Source of the DNA: a virus
Taxonomy: Duplodnaviria > Caudoviricetes
IMG/VR virus record: IMGVR_UViG_3300031802_000010
Span: 1-28,719 of that record
Length of the DNA: 28,719 nucleotides
Strand: one strand, 5' to 3'
In this document: piece by piece, positions 1-12,060 of the stretch
Numbering within the stretch: position 1 is the first letter of the stretch
How the letters are laid out: every line of letters begins with the position of its first letter
The notes under the pieces: model-generated
What the model was told of the DNA's origin: nothing
The model's database searches: none
What the model saw: the letters and a program-made list of their open reading frames with translations, nothing else
Made by a program: the position numbers and the translations under genes

Positions 1-267
1 TGGAGGATAACCTGGCAAGAACCCACTTCAGTAATGAACATGGTTTTTGGGGATTTTTCCTTTCCGGGTAGGATTATATTTCAAAGAAAGAAGACATTCT
101 CGACTACTAACTACGATGAACTTATTAATAAATTAGATGAATTGCAGGATCTTCAAGATTGTAGTAAACCATCAATGAAACCCATTCTACTAGGGGTTGA
201 AAAAACTATAATCGAAAAAGGTACATATACTAATGCTGACCTAAATTCTAACGCTCCATTTGGTTAA
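1..267 (+). CDS. hypothetical phage protein, 5'-partial
   Basis: The frame is open from base 1 (TGG AGG ATA ACC TGG CAA...) into ORF 34..267, so the gene may start outside the window. No motif recognised. Confidence 0.6.
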   Translation, partial: WRITWQEPTSVMNMVFGDFSFPGRIIFQRKKTFSTTNYDELINKLDELQDLQDCSKPSMKPILLGVEKTIIEKGTYTNADLNSNAPFG

Positions 268-374
268 ACCATTCGTGTAACTTCGTGCGGTACAATGCCG
301 AACAGTTTATTCACCACACCAGGGAATATTCTATTATGAAGAGTCATGCCACTAATAATTTGAAAGGATTCGCA

Positions 375-644
375 ATGCTAGATATACATCCAAATGAACC
401 TACTAGGGAGTTTCGTCTACAGGGGACCGTAAAAGATTATTTCCATGAAACCTACAAACCATATAAACTTCATGTTTATGGTCCAATAGACAACGGTTTT
501 GGGAAAGTCAAGGAAATAAAAGTCCAACAGACTATAGATGTTCTAGATTTACTCGATTTAATTTCAGGAACTGATGACTATTGGCTAGTAAAAATAATCG
601 ATTACTACGGGACGTTTAAATGCATTGAAAAAGGAGCTAAGTAA
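375..644 (+). CDS. hypothetical phage protein (~89 aa)
   Basis: In frame with ORF 285..644. ATG at 375 follows an SD-like AAAGGA, so it is a better start than the GTG at 285. Confidence 0.65.
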   Translation: MLDIHPNEPTREFRLQGTVKDYFHETYKPYKLHVYGPIDNGFGKVKEIKVQQTIDVLDLLDLISGTDDYWLVKIIDYYGTFKCIEKGAK

Positions 645-727
645 TTCATGCCACGAAAAAAGCAGTTTTTAAAAGTATGAAAAAGAAAGCGAAATACAAT
701 CCGTCAAAAATCTTTCGATTTTATCTC

Positions 728-755
728 TTGACTTTTTCGATTTCAGGTATATAAT
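728..755 (+). promoter_or_regulatory. sigma70-type promoter
   Basis: TTGACT (728-733), 16-nt spacer, TATAAT (750-755); an alternative -10 TAATAT at 752-757 gives an 18-nt spacer. AT-rich upstream DNA; intergenic, ahead of the replication operon. Confidence 0.75.
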
Positions 756-758
756 ATC

Positions 759-890
759 CCTGAGACTTGAGAAAAACTTTTTATAGATTCATGCCACAAC
801 AAATTCGATCTATCCCGTACAGTCAAGTCAGTCTGTAGTATGCAGTGGCATGAGTACTATATGACTGGCTTGGCTTTTTTAGTCTCTAGG
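759..890 (+). ncRNA. candidate structured leader RNA / sRNA
   Basis: Begins near the predicted +1. Pairings read by hand: 762-767 with 881-886, 821-840 with 855-875, and 789-797 with 845-853. Not a family I recognise. Confidence 0.45.
821..880 (+). terminator. intrinsic terminator-like hairpin in the helicase leader
   Basis: AGTCAAGTCAGTC pairs with GACTGGCTTGGCT (13 bp, 2 G.U) and TGTAGTA with TACTATA (7 bp, 1 G.U). 14-nt loop; T-run 875-880. Confidence 0.65.
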
Positions 891-905
891 CAGATTGGAT
901 ATTTT

Positions 906-2528
906 ATGATAAAGTTTTACAAGAAAGTAAACTGTCCTGAATGCTCTGCTTCTGTTAATACCATAAACGGAGAGCGCTACCCAGTTATAGGTCATATCAA
1001 TGGTTGTTCGTTAGCTGGTCAAAAAGTCGAAACAAAAGGGCGTATTGACAGCCTCTACGATTCGACTATAGATAGTGGAGGGATTTACCCTGACGGCACC
1101 AGAATACCTTATAGGTATCAGACAAAAGGAATTGAATTTGCTAAAGGAAAAGATTCTTTTGCACTATTCTGGCAAATGAGACTTGGCAAAACTCTTACGA
1201 CAATTAAAATCGGTAAAGAAAAAAATTGGGAAAAGGTACTAATAGTTTGCCCTAAATCAGTTATTAACACCTGGATGAGAGAGCTTAAGCTGGAAAAACA
1301 GGCTGTACTTCGACTAACTACCGTAAGTCTTAAACACACAGCAGTTAAAAGGTCTCTTAAGTTCATGCCGGGGTGGTTTGTCACCAATTATGAAACACTT
1401 ATAAAAGAAAACTTAGCTGAATTAGCTGACTGGGATGCACTGATTTTAGATGAATCCGAAAAGATAAAAGACCCAACAACCAAAATTAGTAGGGAATTAG
1501 CTGGAGGTTACTTCAAAAAAATAATTGAACAACCCGATAGAGATGACAAAGAAGTTAAAATTTATCGGGATCGATGGAGAAAAGTAAAAAATAAAGTTTG
1601 TTTAACAGGTACACCAGCACCAGAAAATTTATTAAACTATTTCCAGCAACTCAAATTTCTATTCGGTAGTTTTGCTGGAACAGATAATTACCAAACATTC
1701 AAATCTAAATACTTCACAATGATTGGGCCAAATAAATTTACAGTATCCCCGCATGTATCCCAGTTTTTATCAGCTACATTGGCTGAATATTGTTTTGTTC
1801 TTCAAAGGGATCAAGTAGGAATTGGTTCAACTAAGGTATTTGAAGAACGAGAAACTGAACTATCTTCAGAATACCGTGAAGTTTACGATAGTTTTGAAAG
1901 AGATTGGATAACTGAAAATGGTGAACTAAGTGTTTTATGTGCTATTGCAGCATATACCCATCTACATCAACTATCTGGAGGTTACCACCATAAAATGGTC
2001 AAAAAAGGGATTACTAGTCCCCATAAACTCAATGAACTAAAGCAAATCCTAAAGAATGATCTTCGAGGTGAACGAGTATTAATCTGGTTTCGCTTTAAAG
2101 AGGAAATAAAGCAAGTTACTAAGGTATTACCAGTAGATTCATGGGCAATATGGTCTGGAGATACCAAAACTGATCAGCGTTTAGACCTGGAAGAACAATT
2201 TGCATGGAGAAACCGTTCTAAGCCATTAAATGGTAAAGTAAGAAAACAGTACCTTTTATGCCAGATAAAATCTGCTTGTCATGGACTAGACTTTGCAGGA
2301 GCTGATCAATCTATCTACTTCAGTAATGAACCTGGTTCTAAATGGCGACAACAGTCAGAAGATAGGTTAATTCATCCTGAAAAAGAAGTACCACTACTTT
2401 ATATTGATCTAGTAGCTGAGAATACTATCTGCCCATCTATTCTTGCGGCTTTAAAAGGTAAAATAGAAGATCAACAGACGTTTTTAATGAAAATTCATGA
2501 AGATATGAAAGAAAGGCACGGAGTATGA
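906..2528 (+). CDS. SNF2-family (SF2) helicase/translocase with N-terminal Cys/His Zn-binding motif
   Basis: Motifs PYRYQ, MRLGKT (I), LIVCPKSV (Ia), LILDESE (II), LTGTP (III), HGLDF (V), QSEDR (VI); N-terminal CPEC...HINGC. The track start (840) lies inside the hairpin, so the in-frame ATG at 906 is preferred. Confidence 0.9.
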   Translation: MIKFYKKVNCPECSASVNTINGERYPVIGHINGCSLAGQKVETKGRIDSLYDSTIDSGGIYPDGTRIPYRYQTKGIEFAKGKDSFALFWQMRLGKTLTTIKIGKEKNWEKVLIVCPKSVINTWMRELKLEKQAVLRLTTVSLKHTAVKRSLKFMPGWFVTNYETLIKENLAELADWDALILDESEKIKDPTTKISRELAGGYFKKIIEQPDRDDKEVKIYRDRWRKVKNKVCLTGTPAPENLLNYFQQLKFLFGSFAGTDNYQTFKSKYFTMIGPNKFTVSPHVSQFLSATLAEYCFVLQRDQVGIGSTKVFEERETELSSEYREVYDSFERDWITENGELSVLCAIAAYTHLHQLSGGYHHKMVKKGITSPHKLNELKQILKNDLRGERVLIWFRFKEEIKQVTKVLPVDSWAIWSGDTKTDQRLDLEEQFAWRNRSKPLNGKVRKQYLLCQIKSACHGLDFAGADQSIYFSNEPGSKWRQQSEDRLIHPEKEVPLLYIDLVAENTICPSILAALKGKIEDQQTFLMKIHEDMKERHGV

Positions 2529-2764
2529 AAGGATTCTTAGCTGAACAACAGCCAAGAGCTAAAAGTATTGGCGAATACTCAGATTTGAAAGTAATGCGTT
2601 CCTCTGCTGGGTACTACATAGGCACTCTATTTACTCACAGCAATAAAAGTAGTTCTCCAGGACTGGAAGAACCAGGTACACGAGAATCTCAGTATTTTCC
2701 AACTGAAGTACATGCACTACAAGCATTAATTGACGATAATTGGCAACAAAGGCTAGAACCATAA
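2525..2764 (+). CDS. conserved-looking hypothetical phage protein
   Basis: ATGA overlap with the helicase stop. The pattern LxVxxSxAGYYIG...PxxRESxY...AL...W resembles a recurrent small phage/mobile-element protein of unknown function (from memory). Confidence 0.8.
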   Translation: MKGFLAEQQPRAKSIGEYSDLKVMRSSAGYYIGTLFTHSNKSSSPGLEEPGTRESQYFPTEVHALQALIDDNWQQRLEP

Positions 2765-2765
2765 G

Positions 2766-3266
2766 ATGACTAGAATAAACCTTCCCCCTATTCCAGAAAA
2801 TGCTTTCATTACCTGTGATCCTGGTAGTGGGGGGACTGGTTTAGCTTTATTTTTTCCAGAACATCCATTTCCTATGGATACTAAAGTAATTAAATGCCCA
2901 ATAAATGATTGGGAAATAAAACAAAGAATGATTTTATCAACCACTGATGCATATTTAGTTGATATGTATGAAAGAGGTTGTAGAAAACTATTTATCGAAT
3001 TACCACAGTATATGAACTCTGTAAAAGGAGAGATAGCTGCTAAATCTAATGCGTTAGGTAAGTTACTAATGGTATATGGAGGGATTAAAGCTAATGCAGA
3101 ATTGCGCGGGTATACTACAAAACCAATCATTATAGGTCATTGGAAAGGTCAATTAGACAAACATAAAGTAAATATTAGGATAAAGAAAATCATTGGTGCT
3201 GAATTTGAAGATCATATTGCCGATGCAGTTGGAATGGGTCTGTATCTAAAAGGAAAATTCAAATGA
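2766..3266 (+). CDS. RuvC-like Holliday junction resolvase
   Basis: RNase H-fold catalytic pattern: ITCDPGSGGTGLA, FIELP, WKGQLDK, DHIADAVG. Confidence 0.85.
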   Translation: MTRINLPPIPENAFITCDPGSGGTGLALFFPEHPFPMDTKVIKCPINDWEIKQRMILSTTDAYLVDMYERGCRKLFIELPQYMNSVKGEIAAKSNALGKLLMVYGGIKANAELRGYTTKPIIIGHWKGQLDKHKVNIRIKKIIGAEFEDHIADAVGMGLYLKGKFK

Positions 3267-3526
3267 GGAATATGAAAGAACTACAAATTGGTAAGGAAGA
3301 TATCTGGGATGGTTTCATTTACATCTATCTTTGGGACGATGGAAAACTAGGCATGAGTTATACAGGACCATATGCAGGAGATTTAGCAAGTATAGAAGAA
3401 GGATTCTTAACTGTATTTGAATGTCAAGACTGTTCTATGGTTAGACTACTAGATTGTGAAGGAAATGGAACTAGATTAGCTTTTGCTAAAAAATATGCTG
3501 GAAATGTAAGGTATCATCATATATAA
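3263..3526 (+). CDS. hypothetical protein
   Basis: ATGA-coupled to the upstream gene and fills the operon gap; one CxxC. Confidence 0.7.
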   Translation: MRNMKELQIGKEDIWDGFIYIYLWDDGKLGMSYTGPYAGDLASIEEGFLTVFECQDCSMVRLLDCEGNGTRLAFAKKYAGNVRYHHI

Positions 3527-3537
3527 GAGAGATCACC

Positions 3538-4587
3538 ATGCCACAAGACTTCTACAAAATAGAGACTCTACCTCTTAATAAAAAAGTAGAAAACCAACAC
3601 TCTGTTTGGAACTACTATCGCGATGGAGTATCTCAATCATTCTCTAAAAAATTTAGAGAATGTAAACTCCAAACTAAACTTGAGTATGTAGACGGCTGGA
3701 CCAATAAATATGACAAAATTTGGTTCCGCTATGGAAAGCTAGTTCATTACCTGCTAGAACAGCAGTATCTAGGTTTCAATATCGATAGTGAAGAAACTGC
3801 ATTTAGTATGGCAACAACATTTGCTAATAAATACAGATGGTTTCTTCCGCAATTACCAGAAATAATTAAAGAAGAAAATACTTTTCTTGTAGCTTTAGCT
3901 GCCCATATTCTTCCAGTATACGTTAAATGGAGCATTATGGACGTTAAACTAACGAAAACTCTTGCTGTTGAAAAAGAGTACCGTATGCCATGCCAAGATA
4001 CCTTTGCTAGAGGAATAGTCGATAGAGTTTACCGGGATATGAACGGTTTACTTTGTTTAAAAGACTATAAAACAACAGCTAGAGTAATACGAGAAGCTGA
4101 ATTTTACGAGACATATAAATTAGATACTCAAACTTACTTATACTACCTCTTAGTTTTTAATGAATTCCAGGAAATGCCCCATAAAATGGAATTTGAGTTT
4201 ATTAGAACGCCTAAACATACTCTAGATCGAAAAAAAGATAACGTTTCATTTGAGGATTTCTTGAGCAAAGCTTGTGCTGACTTCGATCAAAGTCCGTCAA
4301 AATACCTAGGAAAAATAGAAATAAAACTAACAGCTAGTGAACTAACAAAATGGTATAATGAGCAATGGCTAGGCATTATAGACGAGATTAAATACTGGTG
4401 GGATGGGGGATGTAAACCATACCCATATAACGAACAGTCATTAAGGACGTCTTATAATAGTCGTTGCGAGATGTTTTATTTTATTACTGAAGGAAGAGAA
4501 GATAATTTATATAAACGAACCACTGCATTCACACAATACAAGGATGCCAACAATGACAAAAACTTGGTTACCGACTTCGATATCTGA
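3538..4587 (+). CDS. PD-(D/E)XK (RecB/Cas4-like) exonuclease
   Basis: SxS...C start, GKLVHYLLE, VEKEY, RGIVDRV, DYKT and QxxxY; adjacent to a Sak4-like ATPase. Confidence 0.88.
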   Translation: MPQDFYKIETLPLNKKVENQHSVWNYYRDGVSQSFSKKFRECKLQTKLEYVDGWTNKYDKIWFRYGKLVHYLLEQQYLGFNIDSEETAFSMATTFANKYRWFLPQLPEIIKEENTFLVALAAHILPVYVKWSIMDVKLTKTLAVEKEYRMPCQDTFARGIVDRVYRDMNGLLCLKDYKTTARVIREAEFYETYKLDTQTYLYYLLVFNEFQEMPHKMEFEFIRTPKHTLDRKKDNVSFEDFLSKACADFDQSPSKYLGKIEIKLTASELTKWYNEQWLGIIDEIKYWWDGGCKPYPYNEQSLRTSYNSRCEMFYFITEGREDNLYKRTTAFTQYKDANNDKNLVTDFDI

Positions 4588-5323
4588 GGCCCATATTGAT
4601 GACAATAGATTTAGCATACTTCTTTATGGACAAGATAAAGTTGGAAAATCTAAATTTTGTTCCAGTATACCAAATCATTTGATTATAGCTTGCCGTATGG
4701 GCAACATAGATCATATTGATTCTAAAAGAGTATACATTGGTGGTGAAGAAGATATGGAAAATCCAAAAGGTTTAGAGAACTTTATAGAAATTTTAAATCA
4801 AGTTCAATCTACTCCAGATTGTTGCGATACTTTAATTATAGATGATGCAGATAGACTTTATGAGCATTGTGTAAGGCATTACGCTGTCAATAGATTCAAA
4901 ATTAAAGAGCATGAACTGCCTTCAAGGATAGTTTGGTATACTGTTCGGAATAAAATGACTCAAATAATGGGTTTACTAAAAAGTTTACCCTGTGGCCTAG
5001 TCTTTACTTTTAATGAGGAATTAGAATCAATTGACGATATATCAACTGAAATTACTAGAAGAAACATAACAGCATCACCACAGTACAAAACGATTCTAAG
5101 AGGACAGTTTTTAATGCGAATGTATATGGACATTGGCAATTCTGGCGATAGACGGTTAACCATAGAAGGGAGTAGAGGACTAGCAGCTGGAAACGGGTAC
5201 GACAAGAATTTCTTATATGAAGGGAAAAAACTAAAACGTTTCTCCATCGGAAACGATGGAAACCATGGCTGGACAATGTTTAAAATGGCTTTTAACAACC
5301 AACTAAAGGGAGAAGTAATATGA
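4544..5323 (+). CDS. Sak4-like / AAA_24 P-loop ATPase (phage recombination)
   Basis: Walker A LLYGQDKVGKS and Walker B LIIDD; sits in an exonuclease-ATPase-SSB gene order. Confidence 0.8.
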   Translation: MPTMTKTWLPTSISEAHIDDNRFSILLYGQDKVGKSKFCSSIPNHLIIACRMGNIDHIDSKRVYIGGEEDMENPKGLENFIEILNQVQSTPDCCDTLIIDDADRLYEHCVRHYAVNRFKIKEHELPSRIVWYTVRNKMTQIMGLLKSLPCGLVFTFNEELESIDDISTEITRRNITASPQYKTILRGQFLMRMYMDIGNSGDRRLTIEGSRGLAAGNGYDKNFLYEGKKLKRFSIGNDGNHGWTMFKMAFNNQLKGEVI

Positions 5324-6345
5324 GTTTAAATTTGAACGCCACCATTAACAAAGAAGCATTTTTGGGCGTTGATCTAAGTTTTGAAGAGGTCCCATATGGT
5401 ATTTATGTTTGTGAATTGATTAAATGGTCTATTGGTCCACCAAATAATGAAAATAGTGATTGCACTAAGCAATCAGTTATGGTTTGGAAAGTAGCTGAAG
5501 AAGGAAGTTCTTATAACGGTTGCAATATTTATATGACCGATGCATTAGAATATAAAGAAAGATCGAGTACTTTTAGATCAAACAATTACTTTGGTTTACG
5601 GATTAAAACTAGTCAATTTAAAATTCCTAAAGAACTTTTTCCGGGAAATGAAGAAGATTGTATGGAAGCTTGTTTAGGTAGTCAAGCAAAAGTTGTGATT
5701 CAACCAGCTATAAAAAACAATGAACCCTTAGTAAAACAAGATGGTTCACCAATTGTTAATCGTAAAATTGATTCTATTATTGTTAATACGTATACTAAAA
5801 CTCCTGGTCCATTACCAAAAAAGGAAGTGTCACCTAATGGACAACCTATTCCTCCTTCTGTTCCAGATATTAAGAAGGGAGATAAATTCCTTTTTAATGG
5901 TAGCCCAGTAATTGTAGATATGTACGCAAAAGATTCTGGAACTATTTTAGTAAAGGATCAATCTGGAAATCAATTAGCAATTCATGATCTTACCCAGCTA
6001 CAGGAATTACCAACACTACCAGCAACTCCAATAAGTTCACCTACTGCCCAATCCGGCCCAACTCCACAAACTGGTGGACCAACTCCACAAACTGATAGTA
6101 CAGTAGAGGAGAGTATTATGGCCTTGCCATTGGAAACTGTAGATAAAGTTTCGAGTCTACCCAATCTGAAAAAAGGGAGTCACGTTGAAGGTGTATTTGA
6201 AAGCGCCGAGGGTTCTCAAATAATTACCGGAACTATTCATTCTGAACATAATACCCCTGGTGGTATAGTCTATAAAATTCGTGTAGGGGACTCATTATAC
6301 CCTTGCAAGAGCGAAAATGTTAAATTAGCAGGGCTTGAGGAGTAG
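5320..6345 (+). CDS. putative ssDNA-binding protein (DUF669-like N-terminus) with two C-terminal small beta-barrel-like domains
   Basis: N-terminal FEEVPYGIYVCEL...WKV...GCNIY fits the DUF669-like pattern, and the position after the Sak4-like gene fits. Pro/Thr-rich linkers separate two xKKG-initiated modules. Confidence 0.65.
   Translation: MSLNLNATINKEAFLGVDLSFEEVPYGIYVCELIKWSIGPPNNENSDCTKQSVMVWKVAEEGSSYNGCNIYMTDALEYKERSSTFRSNNYFGLRIKTSQFKIPKELFPGNEEDCMEACLGSQAKVVIQPAIKNNEPLVKQDGSPIVNRKIDSIIVNTYTKTPGPLPKKEVSPNGQPIPPSVPDIKKGDKFLFNGSPVIVDMYAKDSGTILVKDQSGNQLAIHDLTQLQELPTLPATPISSPTAQSGPTPQTGGPTPQTDSTVEESIMALPLETVDKVSSLPNLKKGSHVEGVFESAEGSQIITGTIHSEHNTPGGIVYKIRVGDSLYPCKSENVKLAGLEE
6055..6096 (+). 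repeat. 21-nt tandem repeat x2 (GPTPQTG/GPTPQTD)
   Basis: ggcccaactccacaaactggt / ggaccaactccacaaactgat, 19/21 identical, in the linker. Confidence 0.9.
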
Positions 6346-6374
6346 CCACGTTAGGAAATTAAAGTTGTCCCAAA

Positions 6375-6428
6375 CTAATAGGGGCTAGTAGTTAAAGTAA
6401 ACTATCTAGTCCCCTATTAGATTTTTTT
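6375..6428 (+). terminator. intrinsic terminator
   Basis: CTAATAGGGG (6375-6384) / CCCCTATTAG (6411-6420), extended by CTAG/CTAG and TAGTT/AACTA, then T7 (6422-6428); intergenic. Confidence 0.8.
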
Positions 6429-6438
6429 AAGAGATATT

Positions 6439-8229
6439 ATGGAAATTGCCGTAGATACAGAAACTACTGGGCTACATTGGACAAAAGGACACCAGCCATT
6501 TGGCATAGGTATATTCGCTGAAAATTGGAAGTCTTACCACGATTGCCCAGTAGATTTTGAAACTCATAAAATTACTGGAAATTTTGATAATTTAAAAACG
6601 TTTCTAGAAAATGAAGATAAAGTTATTTACTTTCATAATGCAAAATTTGATCTTCATATGCTTGCTAGTGTTGGTATTTATCCTAAAGGCCAAATTCATG
6701 ATACAATGTTTATGGCAAGGATATGTGATAATAGAGAGGCTAACTTTCAACTTAAACCACTGGCTAAAAAATACCTTGAAATCCCTGATGATGACGAAAA
6801 AGATTTAAAAGAGGCAGTTCTAAAAACAAGAAAAATTTACGATATAGATAGTGACTATCATGAACTTTATTGGTTACCAAAATACCATGATCCAGAAAAT
6901 AACTTATGTGAAATTTATTGTTTAAGGGATGTCGAGCGAACATACAAATTAGCTATGCATTACAAAAAGAAAATGGATACATTAGGGGTTCGCCATACAT
7001 ACGATATGGAAATGGCTCTTTTACCTATTTTATCTCTAATGGAGCGAACAGGAATACGCTTCGATAGAAAAAAAGCAGAAGAGAAATTCCTAGACTTAAA
7101 ACTTCAATTATCGAAGATAAATTTTAAACTCCAAAAAACTTATGGGGATATAAATTTTAATTCTCAGCAGCAAGTATCTACATTGCTCTTAATGTTAGGA
7201 ATACCATTAACTGAAAGAACTGCTGCATCTGATAGATTTCCAAATGGACAACTTAAAGCTGGAGCTAAAGTTCTAGCTGATTTCCAAGATAAATCTCCCA
7301 TTTGTAGAACCTTAGTCTATAGAGATAAGTTAGCTAGATCAGTAACAGAACTGCTAAATTACTGTGAATTTGAATATGCTGGAGTAATCAGCCCACGAAC
7401 AAATCAATGCCATGCAGTTACTTGGAGGTTCTCCCAATCAGATCCAAACTTAATGAAGACAACTAAAAAACAAAATCAAGGATCAGAATTTACTTTAATG
7501 AGAGATTTATTTGGACCTAGAGAAGGGTATGTTTGGGTAGCAGCAGATTATGAACAGATTGAATTACGTATTTTTGCTGATTCCAGTCAAGAGCCCCATT
7601 TATTAAACGCATTTCGAGCTGGAAAAGATATTCACAGTGAAACAACTAATCGGATCCCCTTCTTAATGGAAATGGCGATGGAAGAAGGATGGGAAAAAGC
7701 TAGAAGTTATGGTAAAAATACTAATTTTACAATTATTAATGGTGGAGGAGCAAGTGCTCTATGGAAACAATATCGAATACCAGAAGAACAAGCTAGCAAA
7801 TGTATCATTGGATTCAAAAATGCATATCCATTAGCTAAAGAGTATATGAATCTTCAAACTAAACAGGCAAAAAAGACTGGCTTTGTAACTACCAAATCAA
7901 AAAGACGTTTATTTACTGATCCTAAAAAGCCGTATACAACAGCAATTAGTTATGATATTCAACCATGTGCAGGGGATATGATGAAACAAGGACTCATAAA
8001 TTGCTATGATTGGATCATGAAAAATTCTTGCTGGAATGATATAAGAATTTTACTATCTATTCACGATGAATTGATCTTTGAAATTAAAAAAGACATCTAT
8101 GATCTTGAAATAGTAAAAATACTAAAAAAATTAATGGAACTACCATGCAAAATTTTCTGTATTCCTATTCCAGTAAATTGTGATTTAATAGTTAATAATT
8201 GGGCTGAAAAAGAAAAAATAATTTTATGA
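6439..8229 (+). CDS. polA: family A DNA polymerase with 3'-5' exonuclease (no 5'-3' exo domain)
   Basis: ExoI DTETTG, ExoII FHNAKFD, ExoIII YCLRDV; motif A ADYEQIELR, motif B RSYGKNTNF, motif C IHDEL. Confidence 0.95.
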   Translation: MEIAVDTETTGLHWTKGHQPFGIGIFAENWKSYHDCPVDFETHKITGNFDNLKTFLENEDKVIYFHNAKFDLHMLASVGIYPKGQIHDTMFMARICDNREANFQLKPLAKKYLEIPDDDEKDLKEAVLKTRKIYDIDSDYHELYWLPKYHDPENNLCEIYCLRDVERTYKLAMHYKKKMDTLGVRHTYDMEMALLPILSLMERTGIRFDRKKAEEKFLDLKLQLSKINFKLQKTYGDINFNSQQQVSTLLLMLGIPLTERTAASDRFPNGQLKAGAKVLADFQDKSPICRTLVYRDKLARSVTELLNYCEFEYAGVISPRTNQCHAVTWRFSQSDPNLMKTTKKQNQGSEFTLMRDLFGPREGYVWVAADYEQIELRIFADSSQEPHLLNAFRAGKDIHSETTNRIPFLMEMAMEEGWEKARSYGKNTNFTIINGGGASALWKQYRIPEEQASKCIIGFKNAYPLAKEYMNLQTKQAKKTGFVTTKSKRRLFTDPKKPYTTAISYDIQPCAGDMMKQGLINCYDWIMKNSCWNDIRILLSIHDELIFEIKKDIYDLEIVKILKKLMELPCKIFCIPIPVNCDLIVNNWAEKEKIIL

Positions 8230-8235
8230 GCAATT

Positions 8236-8658
8236 ATGGACTCAAAAATGAAACCTCTGCCTTTTATGCTCTTAGAGCTAAATAAGCACTTTACATTCCG
8301 AAAAATTACGGTAGTTTATAAAAAGACTGGTTACCATTCATATAGTAAAGCAAAAGATACATCAGAAAATCCTATTGAAACCATTATATCATCAATGGAG
8401 AAAGTAATTTATCCATATGAGTATGTAAATGTAGCTGATTTAATTAAGCCTAGACCTAATGTCATAGAAGAAAATTTAATTGCCTTTCTTTTACTAGAAT
8501 ACGGGGTTAAATTCAAGTTTCCTCATACAAATACACTATACACTAAAAAGAGCTACTTAACGTATACAGGTGAATTACCCATTAGAGGCAATAAAACACG
8601 AATGATCGAGTTTACTTGTGCAGATATTACAGGATTAATGGAAAGAATATACGAGTAA
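8236..8658 (+). CDS. hypothetical protein
   Basis: 140-aa ORF filling the gap between polymerase and primase; no motif recognised. Confidence 0.7.
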   Translation: MDSKMKPLPFMLLELNKHFTFRKITVVYKKTGYHSYSKAKDTSENPIETIISSMEKVIYPYEYVNVADLIKPRPNVIEENLIAFLLLEYGVKFKFPHTNTLYTKKSYLTYTGELPIRGNKTRMIEFTCADITGLMERIYE

Positions 8659-8682
8659 ACCATGTAAAGGACTAGATCGACC

Positions 8683-10737
8683 ATGGCAAGGAAAAAAGAG
8701 TGTTTGCGAGATATGATGGAGTTTTTTGGTGTCGAATTTTCAGAAATTGAGAAAAAAGAAGAATCTGTCGGGACTTGTTTTAAATGCGATAAAGAAGCCC
8801 ACTTATATGTTAGCAAAAAGAAAAACGTTTTTAAGTGCCATCGATGTGGAGTTAATGGCAATACTAGTGATTTTATGGATTTTATTTGGTCTGGTTTAAA
8901 AGAATTAATATCTGATGACAATCTTCATGCTTTAGCAAAATTTCGTAGACTCCCTTTAGAGGCTTTTTTAAATGTAGAAATAGGCTATAGAAGAGGAAGC
9001 TATTATTTTCCAGTAAAAACCCCTTCTGGAAGAATAACAGATTTTAGATGGTATACCCTTGGAAAAAAAGAACAGTCGGTAACAGGGGCCATTTCTGGAT
9101 TATACGGAATAGAAAATATAGCAAAAGATCATACCAAATTCGATAGAATTTATATATGTGAAGGCATTATGGATGCTATTGGAATGAACTATCTAATAAA
9201 ACAAAATGGAGCAAATGAAATAGCTTTATCCCTTCCAGGAGTAAATAACTTCAAGATGGAATGGGCACCATACTTTCTAGAACAAAATGTAGCTCTATTA
9301 TATGATTCAGATAGTGCAGCTGTTTCTGGAAGAAACAAAGTATTTAGTATAATGCCACCACCAATGGTTAAGGAACTAAAGTATGTTCATTGGCCTGCTA
9401 TTATGCCAACAGGTTATGATATAAATGATTATATTTCCAGTACAGCAGTAAAAGAAGGAAAGTATACAGAGTGTTTTAATAGTTTAAGGGCTATGCTAGT
9501 TAATGTAGGCAATGAAGGCAATGAAGAATCTAGTAACCAAGATTCTCCATCTATGGAAAAAGAATGGTTTATAGATAGACCAGTAGGTATTGACGAACTG
9601 ATAGGAAAATATAGACTAAATTTAGAGCTAAATGACAATTATGTAAATGCAATAAGACTCTGTTTAGCTACAATTCTATCTATTGGAATGCGAGATAAAG
9701 ATCCAGTTTGGGTATTCTTAGTAGGCCCACCTGGTTTCGGTAAAACAGCTATATTATCGTCATTTAAAAACTGTAGTACCTGTGTTTTTCAATCAAGTTT
9801 ATCTAAGCAAAATCTCATTTCTGGATGGAAAACTGAGAATGGCAAAGACCCTAGTTTGCTTCCAAAATTACGGGATAAAACCTTAATTTTAAAAGATTAT
9901 ACGGAAGTTTTAGCTAAGCATAAAACTGATAGGGATGAAATATTTAGTATCCTAAGAGGAGCATTTGATGGCGAAGTAGATAGGGTATTCGGTAATCAGC
10001 AAGAACGTCATTACCATGATCTCCATTTTCCAGCATTGGCTGGAGTAACAGATGAAATTCAGCGATTTTCACAAACTAGTCTTGGAGAAAGATTTCTAAA
10101 ATTTGATATCCATTCACTAAATATTGATCAAGAAGCCCAACAACTTAAAGCAGTCAATACAGCTTTATTCGGTTTAGAGGATACGGAAGAATTAAGTGCA
10201 TTTGTAAACCATTTTTTACTCCAGGAATGGGATTTCTCTAAGAATAGAATTAAGCAGATTTACTCTGAAAGTGAGTATATTACTAAATTGAATGCCCTAT
10301 GTCGTTTAACTGCTTGGATTAGAACTTCAGTTCCTAGAGAAGAATTTTCTAGAACAAATAGGGTAGCGTATGCTCCTAGAAAAGAAAGTGCAAATAGACT
10401 TTCTGTTCAACTTCATAAATTGGCAATAAGCCTTACAATTATGGAAGATAAACTTAGAGTAGATGAATCAATTTACAAGCTATTAAAAAAAATAGCTTAC
10501 AATACAGTAGATGGGTATGGATTTAGAATATTAAAACGGCTACATACTAATGGGGCGAGCTCAGTAGTTCAAATTAATGGGGATATCCAACTTGCAAGAG
10601 AACAAATCTATGGAATTTTAGAAGATTTACAGTTAGTTGGATTAGTAGAGCAGGATAAATTTCAGACAAATGGATCGTCAAGCGTTACTCATTACTACTT
10701 AAATAATGAAGTAAAGAAACTATGGGCTTTGGTATAG
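8683..10737 (+). CDS. primase-helicase fusion: Zn finger + TOPRIM + AAA+ (MCM-like) ATPase + probable winged helix
   Basis: CFKC...H...CHRCG; TOPRIM ICEGIMD, YDSD and YDIND; Walker A LVGPPGFGKT, LILKD, LRGAFDG, LGERF; HTH-like C-terminus. Confidence 0.85.
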   Translation: MARKKECLRDMMEFFGVEFSEIEKKEESVGTCFKCDKEAHLYVSKKKNVFKCHRCGVNGNTSDFMDFIWSGLKELISDDNLHALAKFRRLPLEAFLNVEIGYRRGSYYFPVKTPSGRITDFRWYTLGKKEQSVTGAISGLYGIENIAKDHTKFDRIYICEGIMDAIGMNYLIKQNGANEIALSLPGVNNFKMEWAPYFLEQNVALLYDSDSAAVSGRNKVFSIMPPPMVKELKYVHWPAIMPTGYDINDYISSTAVKEGKYTECFNSLRAMLVNVGNEGNEESSNQDSPSMEKEWFIDRPVGIDELIGKYRLNLELNDNYVNAIRLCLATILSIGMRDKDPVWVFLVGPPGFGKTAILSSFKNCSTCVFQSSLSKQNLISGWKTENGKDPSLLPKLRDKTLILKDYTEVLAKHKTDRDEIFSILRGAFDGEVDRVFGNQQERHYHDLHFPALAGVTDEIQRFSQTSLGERFLKFDIHSLNIDQEAQQLKAVNTALFGLEDTEELSAFVNHFLLQEWDFSKNRIKQIYSESEYITKLNALCRLTAWIRTSVPREEFSRTNRVAYAPRKESANRLSVQLHKLAISLTIMEDKLRVDESIYKLLKKIAYNTVDGYGFRILKRLHTNGASSVVQINGDIQLAREQIYGILEDLQLVGLVEQDKFQTNGSSSVTHYYLNNEVKKLWALV

Positions 10738-10743
10738 GTAATC

Positions 10744-11034
10744 ATGAAACCTAGAATAATTGAATGGAAAATTCTATACAGCGATCTAAAAGATATGCAC
10801 AAATGTGTAGAGATTATTGTTTCATTTGCTCAGGAAGGTTTAGGAATGGAGGAAAATTCCACAAAAGGATTCAAATGCTATACAAACGCTGGAACATTGA
10901 TAATCCGTTTGATTAATCCCAGCAATAGAAATGCATTTATCTTTGCGTTCTATATGGAGTATTTACTAACAGAACCAGAAAATGATAAGGAATCTAGGAT
11001 ACTAATTGCATTGCACAAAGGGCTTTTATCATAA
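10744..11034 (+). CDS. hypothetical protein
   Basis: Last + strand ORF, 6 nt after the primase stop, with AGGT upstream. Confidence 0.7.
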   Translation: MKPRIIEWKILYSDLKDMHKCVEIIVSFAQEGLGMEENSTKGFKCYTNAGTLIIRLINPSNRNAFIFAFYMEYLLTEPENDKESRILIALHKGLLS

Positions 11035-11058
11035 CGTCCTTGTTTAACAAAATCCATA

Positions 11059-11173
11059 CCAGATGTTCTGGCCTGATGCCCTCAAAATCGACGGCAGGAG
11101 CCCTCAGATCGCCTTACACGCTGCCCACCCCTGGCGTGGCAATAATTTGGGGTGGGCAGCTAAGTAGGCTGAG
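11059..11173. other. GC-rich structured intergenic element between convergent modules
   Basis: Perfect 12-bp inverted repeat GCTGCCCACCCC (11120-11131) / GGGGTGGGCAGC (11149-11160), further small stems, and the direct repeat GCCCTCA(AA/G)ATCG. Confidence 0.75.
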
Positions 11174-11199
11174 ATGTCAACAGAGGAGCCTAGCCATGC

Positions 11200-12060
11200 T
11201 CACTTGTTTATGATAACTTCCAAATTATCGCTTACTTTAGTAGCAGATTTTGGTGCTTTAAACTCTAGGTGAGAGAATGGAGAATTTGCATTTAATTCGT
11301 TTATTTCTAGCTTATCTAATTGAATTAAATCTTTTAATCTAAGATCAAATTTTTCCCAATCTTCTTGTGGACCATAATCTTGTATGCAGATATCTAAATA
11401 TTGTATGCCTAAATATTTACAAAAACTGATTGCTGGAAAGATACTATGGGCACCGCCTGCATTACCATGGGAATCCATATTATTTTCTAAATTTCCAAAG
11501 TAAACTGTATCCTGAATAAAAAAACTCTTAGCATCAAAATCAAAGTTTGGCTGAAAGTAAAATGTAAATGGTCTCTCTCCAATTTCTTTTTTAAAAACTA
11601 CTGGAGCAAAAACCATACCTAAATCTTCAAGATCAAATAAACATTCTTCAATACTTTTTTTATCAAAAAAGATAAAGATATCTGCTTTAGGATCACTAGA
11701 AGAAATAACTACATCATACTCTCCATATTCTTTTGCAGTATAGGTAGAATCACATAAAATTGCATTTAACCCAGTAAGACTATTTTCTAGTCCATTTTCA
11801 AGTAAACCCATACCTATTTGATTCCATTTTCCTAAGGGACAAGTCTCATCCCAGTTTACAACTTTTTTCAATATAGGACATCCACACTGATAACACCTAG
11901 CGCTCTTTTTATCTAATTTACTACAAGTATCGCAAATTGATACCCTATATTTTATTTCTTCCCAAGTAGACCTTCGAGCACCTTTTCTAGTTTGTCTAAC
12001 TAAACTCCTAGAATAATCTCTTATTTGATTTGTTATTGGAGGATAATGCAAGTTAGCCAA
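11200..12060 (-). CDS. Cys-rich (DUF6171-like) domain fused to a possible MptE/DUF115-like domain
   Basis: RxxICxxC...RCxxCGC...K...CPLGKW, then HSIFPAISFCKYLGIQYLDICIQD...NELNANS. The likely start is TTG at 12060 after AAAGGA, rather than 12102. Confidence 0.6.
   Translation of the reverse strand: MANLHYPPITNQIRDYSRSLVRQTRKGARRSTWEEIKYRVSICDTCSKLDKKSARCYQCGCPILKKVVNWDETCPLGKWNQIGMGLLENGLENSLTGLNAILCDSTYTAKEYGEYDVVISSSDPKADIFIFFDKKSIEECLFDLEDLGMVFAPVVFKKEIGERPFTFYFQPNFDFDAKSFFIQDTVYFGNLENNMDSHGNAGGAHSIFPAISFCKYLGIQYLDICIQDYGPQEDWEKFDLRLKDLIQLDKLEINELNANSPFSHLEFKAPKSATKVSDNLEVIINK

Follow-up and report, generated by a model that had tools for sequence, protein, structure and literature searches.

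The window analyzed here is the whole stretch of DNA presented (28,719 nt, or 28.7 kb) and constitutes the entire record G000; it is tailed phage DNA with a G+C content of 35.5%, with the replication genes on the + strand and the virion genes on the − strand. It harbors a short repeated motif that occurs in sense at several start codons and once, in reverse, in the apex of a predicted leader hairpin ahead of the replication operon, and this motif and hairpin are the subject of the present analysis. A fuller record of the same phage, G001 (48,660 bp, CheckV completeness 92%), is 99.9% identical across the overlap and extends the window by 19.75 kb, including the remaining early region; window position 1 corresponds to G001 25998. 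The motif copies in the window and the open reading frames (ORFs) attached to them are as follows (SD, Shine-Dalgarno word; positions are those of the window unless marked otherwise).

344-353, + strand: putative target copy with 10-nt complementarity to the hairpin loop; net pairing −11.4 kcal/mol
346-363, + strand: 5-codon ORF starting in the 344 copy and ending directly before the SD (364-368) of the gene at 375
646-654, + strand: putative target copy at ATG 648 behind AAGGAG; the ORF has 10 codons here and is longer in other strains; least conserved copy
789-797, + strand: putative cis target copy of TCATGCCAC, starting an SD-less 15-codon ORF (791-838)
3537-3544, + strand: putative target copy spanning the start codon (3538) of the gene for the PD-(D/E)XK exonuclease; net pairing −9.1 kcal/mol
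845-853, − strand: reverse copy of the motif, the single one in 48,660 bp, located in the hairpin apex

The initial annotation of this DNA had placed the 9-mer TCATGCCAC on the + strand at 344-352, 646-654 and 789-797 and on the − strand at 845-853, and all of these coordinates are correct. Also confirmed were the longer identity ATTCATGCCAC between 644-654 and 787-797, the complementarity of 344-353 to 844-853 over 10 nt, and the position of the 344 copy before a ribosome-binding site (AAGGA at 364-368). For the 646 copy, AAGGAG at 631-636 indeed precedes the ORF encoding MPRKKQFLKV* (648-680), but this 10-codon ORF is not kept in other strains. The count against a Markov background, proposed as a check, gave a mixed answer: the 9-mer is present in 4 copies vs 0.10-0.14 expected (orders 1-4), but ranks only third of 22,261, and the window-wide count is borderline (p 3.6e-6 uncorrected, about 0.08 corrected by our own arithmetic). 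It is, on the other hand, the sole 9-mer with 4 copies inside 520 bp of the window, and any such cluster arose in 1 of 60 Markov-3 simulations. The 8-mer CATGCCAC, hereafter the tag, is also found at 3537-3544, which brings the window total to 5 matches vs 0.30 expected, a number reached in none of 100 shuffles.

Stronger support for the motif came from outside the window, because further copies appear there out of sample. Altogether, G001 contains 8 copies of the tag, 7 on the + strand and 1 on the − strand, vs none for the backwards control. The three new copies (G001 21945, 23694 and 25247) all lie on the early coding strand (p 0.007), and the late region has none of them. Two of the three are the start codons of genes for proteins of 105 and 206 amino acids (aa), with AAGGA 9 and 7 bases upstream (p 0.013 for gene starts preceded by an SD, against 27 starts among 402 ATGs), and the third heads a 47-codon ORF in an intergenic gap. 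In one of the other strains (X4), 207 extra bases are found just upstream of the G001 21945 copy (L003 1911-1912). Every sense copy contains ATG, so that placement "at an ATG" is automatic; the informative count is the 3 of 7 exact sense copies that are starts of long genes, the remaining 4 heading intergenic short ORFs of 5, 10, 15 and 47 codons. The codon CCA and a C at −1 are present in all seven exact copies. Together with the two further long genes that start alike, this contradicts the suggestion that the 3537 copy could be a chance Met-Pro-Gln start. The element is real and non-random. Cores of GCCACG lacking the ATG were also seen in intergenic gaps (L001 514-518 and 1534-1538; window 6345-6349), one of them directly before the SD of the next gene; these may be weak loop partners or partial operator sites.

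The reverse copy is embedded in the leader of the replication operon, which is laid out as follows.

728-755, + strand: sigma-70-type promoter match, TTGACT-16-TATAAT (11/12), with a predicted transcription start near 761-763
762-886, + strand: predicted leader or small RNA, with a length of about 119 nt for an end at the U-tract (880) and of 125 nt if the helix 762-767/881-886 closes
783-813, + strand: small leader hairpin (783-789 with 807-813) that shows the target copy in a 17-nt loop
821-875, + strand: 21-bp hairpin, −30.0 kcal/mol, z −4.87, 0/200 shuffles
842-853, + strand: apical region GCAGUGGCAUGA, in which GUGGCA (845-850) is unpaired with a probability of 0.86-1.0 and is the proposed seed
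875-880, + strand: run of six T directly 3' of the stem, an intrinsic-terminator-like end
906-2528, + strand: gene for an SNF2-type helicase, the first gene behind the hairpin
to 10737, + strand: remainder of the replication operon, by family matches resolvase, exonuclease, Sak4-like protein, family A DNA polymerase and primase

The promoter sequence is the best + strand match in positions 1-12000. The promoter scan as a whole was not enriched (42 sites vs 49.8 in shuffles), and therefore the 11/12 match proves nothing alone. The region 759-890 folds with −42.4 kcal/mol (z −4.71, 0/200 shuffles), whereas the opposite strand has a z of only −2.23. In the terminated RNA, bases 793-799 of the leader copy are unpaired with a probability of 0.8-1.0. 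A scan for terminators with an unbroken stem and a loop of 3-8 nt did not list the 821-875 hairpin. A competing helix can be formed by 783-797, as the 5' arm, with 844-860; the fold of 780-860 has −22.3 kcal/mol. This helix dominates the ensemble for transcripts with 3' ends from 851 to 869, and the terminator fold takes over from 872. Thus, the leader has two mutually exclusive folds that match the antiterminator/terminator pattern. The folding programs used exclude pseudoknots, and cis loop-loop pairing of the 789 copy with the apex is plausible.

Several other features lie near the hairpin or resemble its surroundings. A basic 25-codon ORF (677-754) overlaps the stop of the 10-codon ORF and crosses the promoter. 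Changes in its ATG or in the upstream stop give other strains a longer basic ORF from 648. Words of the type TTCGATT(T/C) flank the hairpin promoter (713-743, 804-812) as well as a promoter match before the gene for a 212-aa protein (L001 ~3301-3366), and the two promoters align at CTTGnCT...ATAATA; these words are possibly a separate DNA-binding site or a promoter element. Strong hairpins, among the ten strongest of G001, are also located between early genes (L001 ~3125-3260 and 4258-4318), and an 11-bp stem that encloses ~40 nt lies directly before the 206-aa gene.

We compared the loop with the gene starts of G001, for which 27 early and 33 late starts (60 in total) were selected by us from the ORF table. 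Among 223 hairpin loops of G001, the loop at 842-853 pairs with the most starts (4 of 60), and 218 loops pair with none. None of 1,500 GC-matched 12-mers reached four starts, a control that is partly circular, the loop having been chosen for the motif. When opening energies were included in an approximate script, 4 of the 27 early starts and all 4 short ORFs scored −9.1 to −13.4; for the remaining early starts the values were −5.5 or weaker in 22 of 23 cases and −8.4 in one (upstream of 30541). With the same script, all 33 late starts were at −4.8 or weaker. In three sites a U stands opposite G854 and could form a wobble pair.

The best sense-strand partner of the loop did not carry an exact tag. 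The start of the 212-aa gene (G001 24367; GAGGA 9 bases upstream) reads CAUGCC-G-ACUGC, that is, the tag is broken by one base. For the 12-nt apex, searched on both strands of G001, it is the best + strand partner in 48.7 kb, with 11 pairs, a one-base bulge and −18.8 kcal/mol, and it ranks first of 1,666 ATGs apart from the loop's own mirror. Pairing at this start reaches the 5' end of the apex (842-844). RNA pairing tolerates a bulge while a protein site gains nothing from it, and therefore this eighth site favors pairing over recognition by a protein. A search of the ESM Atlas with the 212-aa protein gave no usable match.

The comparison of strains drew on seven distinct runs, as DNA contigs only, which probably represent two or three genotypes. 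At least half of window 1-4600 is present in five runs, all of them marine or seawater metagenomes and two of them not marked as possible sources. Base-level differences were readable within window 244-1003 (14/14 listed for X4; 11/11 and 2/2 listed for X12). In X4 and X12 no difference falls in the 344 copy, in the 789 copy or in the loop, which is uninformative because it is expected at about 2% divergence. T841C, by which a U-G pair in the stem becomes C-G, is present in all five runs that cover it (X4, X6, X8, X12 and X15, probably one genotype); it removes ATG 840, which is thereby ruled out as the start of the helicase. The 646 copy carries C652T in X4, X6, X8 and X12 (a G-U wobble, and Pro to Leu) and T649C in X5 (a mismatch, with loss of the ATG), and none of these five runs retains the stop of the 10-codon ORF. 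The protein starts are kept in other strains: MPRQ in 3/3, MPTAQ in 2/2, MPQD of the 206-aa protein in 3/3 and MPQD of the exonuclease in 3/3 read fragments. X4 also has 15 extra bases in the helicase gene (window 1071).

Beyond the strains, queries with the helicase, exonuclease and polymerase against viral and genome contigs and about half of the metagenome collection recovered only the same phage and loci of at most 41% identity in the best segment. Comparisons with cultured phages (blastn and tblastn) gave nothing useful. In sister lineages (45-48% identity) the exonuclease starts with MPN, MPY or MSL, and one sister-lineage helicase starts with MPL, against an MP background of 7/119 helicase and 4/67 polymerase homologues; these starts provide no more than a weak hint. 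A DNA pattern of target plus loop had 6 non-self matches, none with the present layout, and a 15-nt loop pattern had 37, none with at least three sense copies. A de novo scan for start-codon 8-mers that have their mirror in the loop of a hairpin found L001 again; of 130 other loci, 5 had loose matches, none with the same seed and one being an SD word. Two loci seen in this context deserve mention. In an unrelated viral contig (L032 4001-4061, same record as L166), both arms of a long inverted repeat contain the same 9-mer, and the apex sequence is nearly identical; the start-codon pattern was not seen there. In a distant phage (L024 ~7980-8060), a strong hairpin is located at the start of the helicase and includes the complement of that phage's SD word AAGGGGTG, which occurs 11 times.

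Taken together, the results point, with moderate probability and on the basis of the sequence, to a same-strand antisense RNA that is similar in logic to the CI RNA of phage P4 and that likely gates its own operon and blocks several early start codons. The loop at 842-853 would be the seed of a predicted small RNA transcribed from the promoter at 728-755, which would pair with eight ATGs of the early region and block their translation, and the same seed would decide, via the copy in its own leader, whether transcription continues into the replication genes. Transcription would start at about 762. In the growing RNA, 783-797 would pair with 844-860 and hold off the terminator, or a ribosome on the 15-codon leader ORF would prevent its formation, and either would result in read-through. 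Transcripts that fold into the 21-bp hairpin would end near 880 and build up. The accumulated loops would then bind the 789 site of new transcripts, favoring termination and yielding more small RNA, and would also bind the AUGs of the 105-aa, 212-aa, 206-aa and exonuclease genes and of three short upstream ORFs, from which the ribosome would be excluded. Early expression would in this way be wound down by a negative feedback made of RNA alone, which may act as a timer or establish an immunity-like state. Sequence or computation provides the complementarity, the bias in strand and position, the exclusive folds and the U-tract, and we infer all of the functional steps from them.

The antisense RNA had already been proposed in the initial annotation, and all three new exact copies as well as the bulged eighth site fit it. 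Several observations weigh against it. Of the 27 early starts, 23 lack any site. The sites at G001 23694 and window 3537 pair by 8 bases only, and four of the seven exact copies have only short ORFs behind them. The 646 copy is altered in every run covering it, and the last C of the tag is not kept in the sister-lineage exonucleases. The hairpin ranks just 11th among 60-nt windows of G001, and the terminator fold wins completely at equilibrium from position 875, so that read-through requires a kinetic trap or a ribosome; the leader ORF that spans the 5' arm (from the 789 copy to 838) has no SD. Finally, an accessible target is present within the full-length RNA itself and could mask the loop in cis; trans action therefore probably requires 5' processing or leader translation to free the loop.

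A bolder version of the same proposal is possible, but we hold it only tentatively: in the early program of this phage, RNA may replace a repressor protein, the terminator hairpin being at once a self-amplifying small RNA, and at least four unlinked early genes may have converged on C-AUG-CCA-C, in a genome with no recognizable repressor or integrase. Scans of 20, 20, 21 and 57 proteins (overlapping sets) of the 92%-complete record against PHROGs and Pfam gave no family match to integrase, repressor, antirepressor, helix-turn-helix or RegA, nearly all early proteins matching nothing. Among these, two neighboring paralogous early genes (MTTEIEYF... and METEIEVF...; L001 229-504 and 540-992) belong to no known family.

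Much of the evidence would also be accounted for by a phage RNA-binding protein that recognizes single-stranded CAUGCCAC and represses at start codons as RegA does, an explanation that we consider rather unlikely. The bias to the sense strand, the location of the sites at start codons and the cis switch would all follow without a free loop: bound to the 789 copy, such a protein would keep the competing helix from forming and thereby let the terminator form, and the reverse copy would serve only as the 3' arm of an antiterminator acting in cis. About 30 mRNAs have a RegA site that overlaps their AUG (PMC3014915), and an A two bases past the tag, present in 6 of the 7 exact copies, is not complementary to the loop. 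The protein does not predict, however, that the match at the 212-aa start breaks the tag and yet extends the pairing to 842-844 over 11 bp with a bulge, or that the reverse copy lies exactly in the unpaired apex, and no RegA-like or other RNA-binding family was found in the protein scans, though most early proteins match nothing.

An operator in the DNA, the alternative already raised in the initial annotation, remains as a rival, but is weakened by the 7:1 orientation and by the bulged pairing, and we judge it unlikely. TCATG-C-CACGA would be an imperfect 11-bp palindrome for a dimeric phage regulator, with the inverted copy in the hairpin by chance. The 646 copy, TTCATG-C-CACGAA, is symmetric as TTCRTG-S-CAYGAA, six sense copies agree with TCRTGNCAYGA in all positions or all but one, and T649C would suit a symmetric site. 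Copies 646, 789 and 845 flank the strong promoter, one copy follows a weak promoter match (310-337), and partial GCCACG cores are present in other intergenic gaps. A symmetric site, however, predicts both orientations and ATG-CAT or GTG-CAC variants in the early gaps, whereas 7 of the 8 copies point one way and all are ATG-C-CAC. In addition, four sites coincide with start codons that follow an SD-like word at a distance of 6-9 bases, most sites are not close to any promoter match, and no helix-turn-helix or other repressor family was found in the proteins scanned.

The cis switch is the best-computed part of the proposal, and it might be all there is: a purely cis attenuator or kissing-loop gate made of the hairpin and the 789 copy, with the distant copies due to chance or to a separate habit by which early proteins begin with Met-Pro-(Gln/Arg). 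Among Pro codons CCA is the most frequent (294/567), 8 of the 60 starts are Met-Pro, 3 of them late, and the sister-lineage exonucleases keep Met-Pro and not the third residue. A peptide signal has no need, however, for CCA in 7/7 copies or for C before the ATG in 8/8 (15/60 starts genome-wide), and it leaves unexplained the copies that head ORFs of just 5 and 10 codons; at the three late Met-Pro starts, both the C at −1 and the C after CCA are missing. A peptide signal is an unlikely cause of the tag, and three further exact copies out of sample are improbable by chance; we consider a gate acting purely in cis quite unlikely. A reading of the copies as iterons or as an origin is rejected, since they are dispersed across 7.6 kb and bound to ATGs.

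The genome contains other repeats that are separate from the tag. Between the divergent late and early regions of G001 (L002 18096-18249), five to six 16-bp direct repeats of the TGTCAnnnCATAAATG type are accompanied by inverted repeat copies, TCATGA palindromes and duplications of 25 and 27 bp; this array may represent a packaging site, an origin or a set of operators. Two segments of ~20 bases that precede the 206-aa gene recur within it with their order swapped (L001 4166-4206 and 4586-4630). About eight tandem 9-bp units of the ATAGGTAAT type were found at L003 30-100, where GCCACG and a long run of A come next.

The antisense RNAs described as controlling phage genes act at one locus (PMC12197685; CI and IsrK, PMC4825925; C4, PMC8198154); the phage RNAs listed in the review PMC12197685 (sar, OOP, aQ, 24B_1 and PAK_P4as15) have single phage targets or host targets. 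In the literature from 2018 on, with subscription papers mostly outside the search, no small RNA of a lytic phage that represses the phage's own genes via a hairpin-loop seed was found. What appears to be new here, judged from one lineage, is same-strand phage antisense control with a candidate multi-gene regulon. If the antisense RNA is real, one loop serving eight ATGs over 7.6 kb together with a gate on its own operon would constitute a global early-gene switch in about 120 bases, and would offer a compact, reprogrammable seed-plus-attenuator part that is testable with reporters and without phage culture. If the protein or the operator is right instead, the copies form an ordinary regulon with an unknown regulator.

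Among known systems, T4 RegA is a translational repressor protein with A+U-rich, poorly conserved sites (PMC3014915). As with RegA, one regulator would act on the AUG of many phage messages, since the present sites overlap the AUG of several genes; unlike RegA sites, they consist of one exact 8-mer, rich in G+C, to which an RNA loop is complementary, and the proteins scanned gave no match to the RegA family. Transcription attenuators of the pT181 type (PMC3753616) are similar in that an RNA bound to the leader loop would block the antiterminator, so that the terminator forms before the replication genes, and exclusive folds were computed here. In this phage the complementary seed is on the same strand. 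The antisense RNA of pT181 is a countertranscript; no − strand promoter match downstream of the hairpin is closer than 1549, and one 9/12 match (746-718) points away.

In the case of IsrK of prophage Gifsy-1, a short terminated RNA and a read-through mRNA arise from one promoter, and the short form acts in trans on the long one (PMC4825925). The promoter match, the hairpin and the U-tract would allow the same layout of a short form and a read-through form. IsrK, however, activates translation of one coupled ORF pair, whereas repression of several start codons is proposed here, and there is no Rfam match: over 760-890 no family was matched, and none of the five weak matches in 1-4000 overlaps the leader. 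The targets of the C4 antisense RNA of phages P1 and P7 (Rfam RF01695; PMC8198154, PMC2864571) are likewise on the same strand, close to short ORFs to which a downstream gene is coupled. The candidate counterpart in the window is the 5-codon ORF before the gene at 375. C4 RNA has two seeds and the hairpin has one; no icd or antirepressor was detected among the proteins scanned, the targets are spread over 7.6 kb, and RF01695 had no match in 1-4000 at E up to 10 or in L002/L003 at the gathering score.

The CI RNA immunity of phage P4, with its elements seqA, seqB and seqC, has been described (PMC4825925). It differs from the present case in several respects: no seqC-like site lies just downstream, the next sense copy being 2.7 kb on at 3537; the seed is inside a terminator-like hairpin; seven more sites are at unlinked ATGs; and no integrase or satellite genes and no sequence or Rfam match were detected in the scans described above. 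The two share a same-strand antisense element in the leader of a replication operon, with a complementary site upstream in the transcript (seqA in P4; here 789-797 with 845-853, extended to 783-797/844-860), and the proposed outcome, premature termination. In P4 the mature RNA is processed out of a primary transcript. The competition between the helix of the 789 copy and the terminator-like hairpin, which the initial annotation had missed, brings the analogy with P4 closer. Thus, the element, a member of neither the P4 CI, the IsrK nor the C4 family, appears by analogy to work most like P4 CI.

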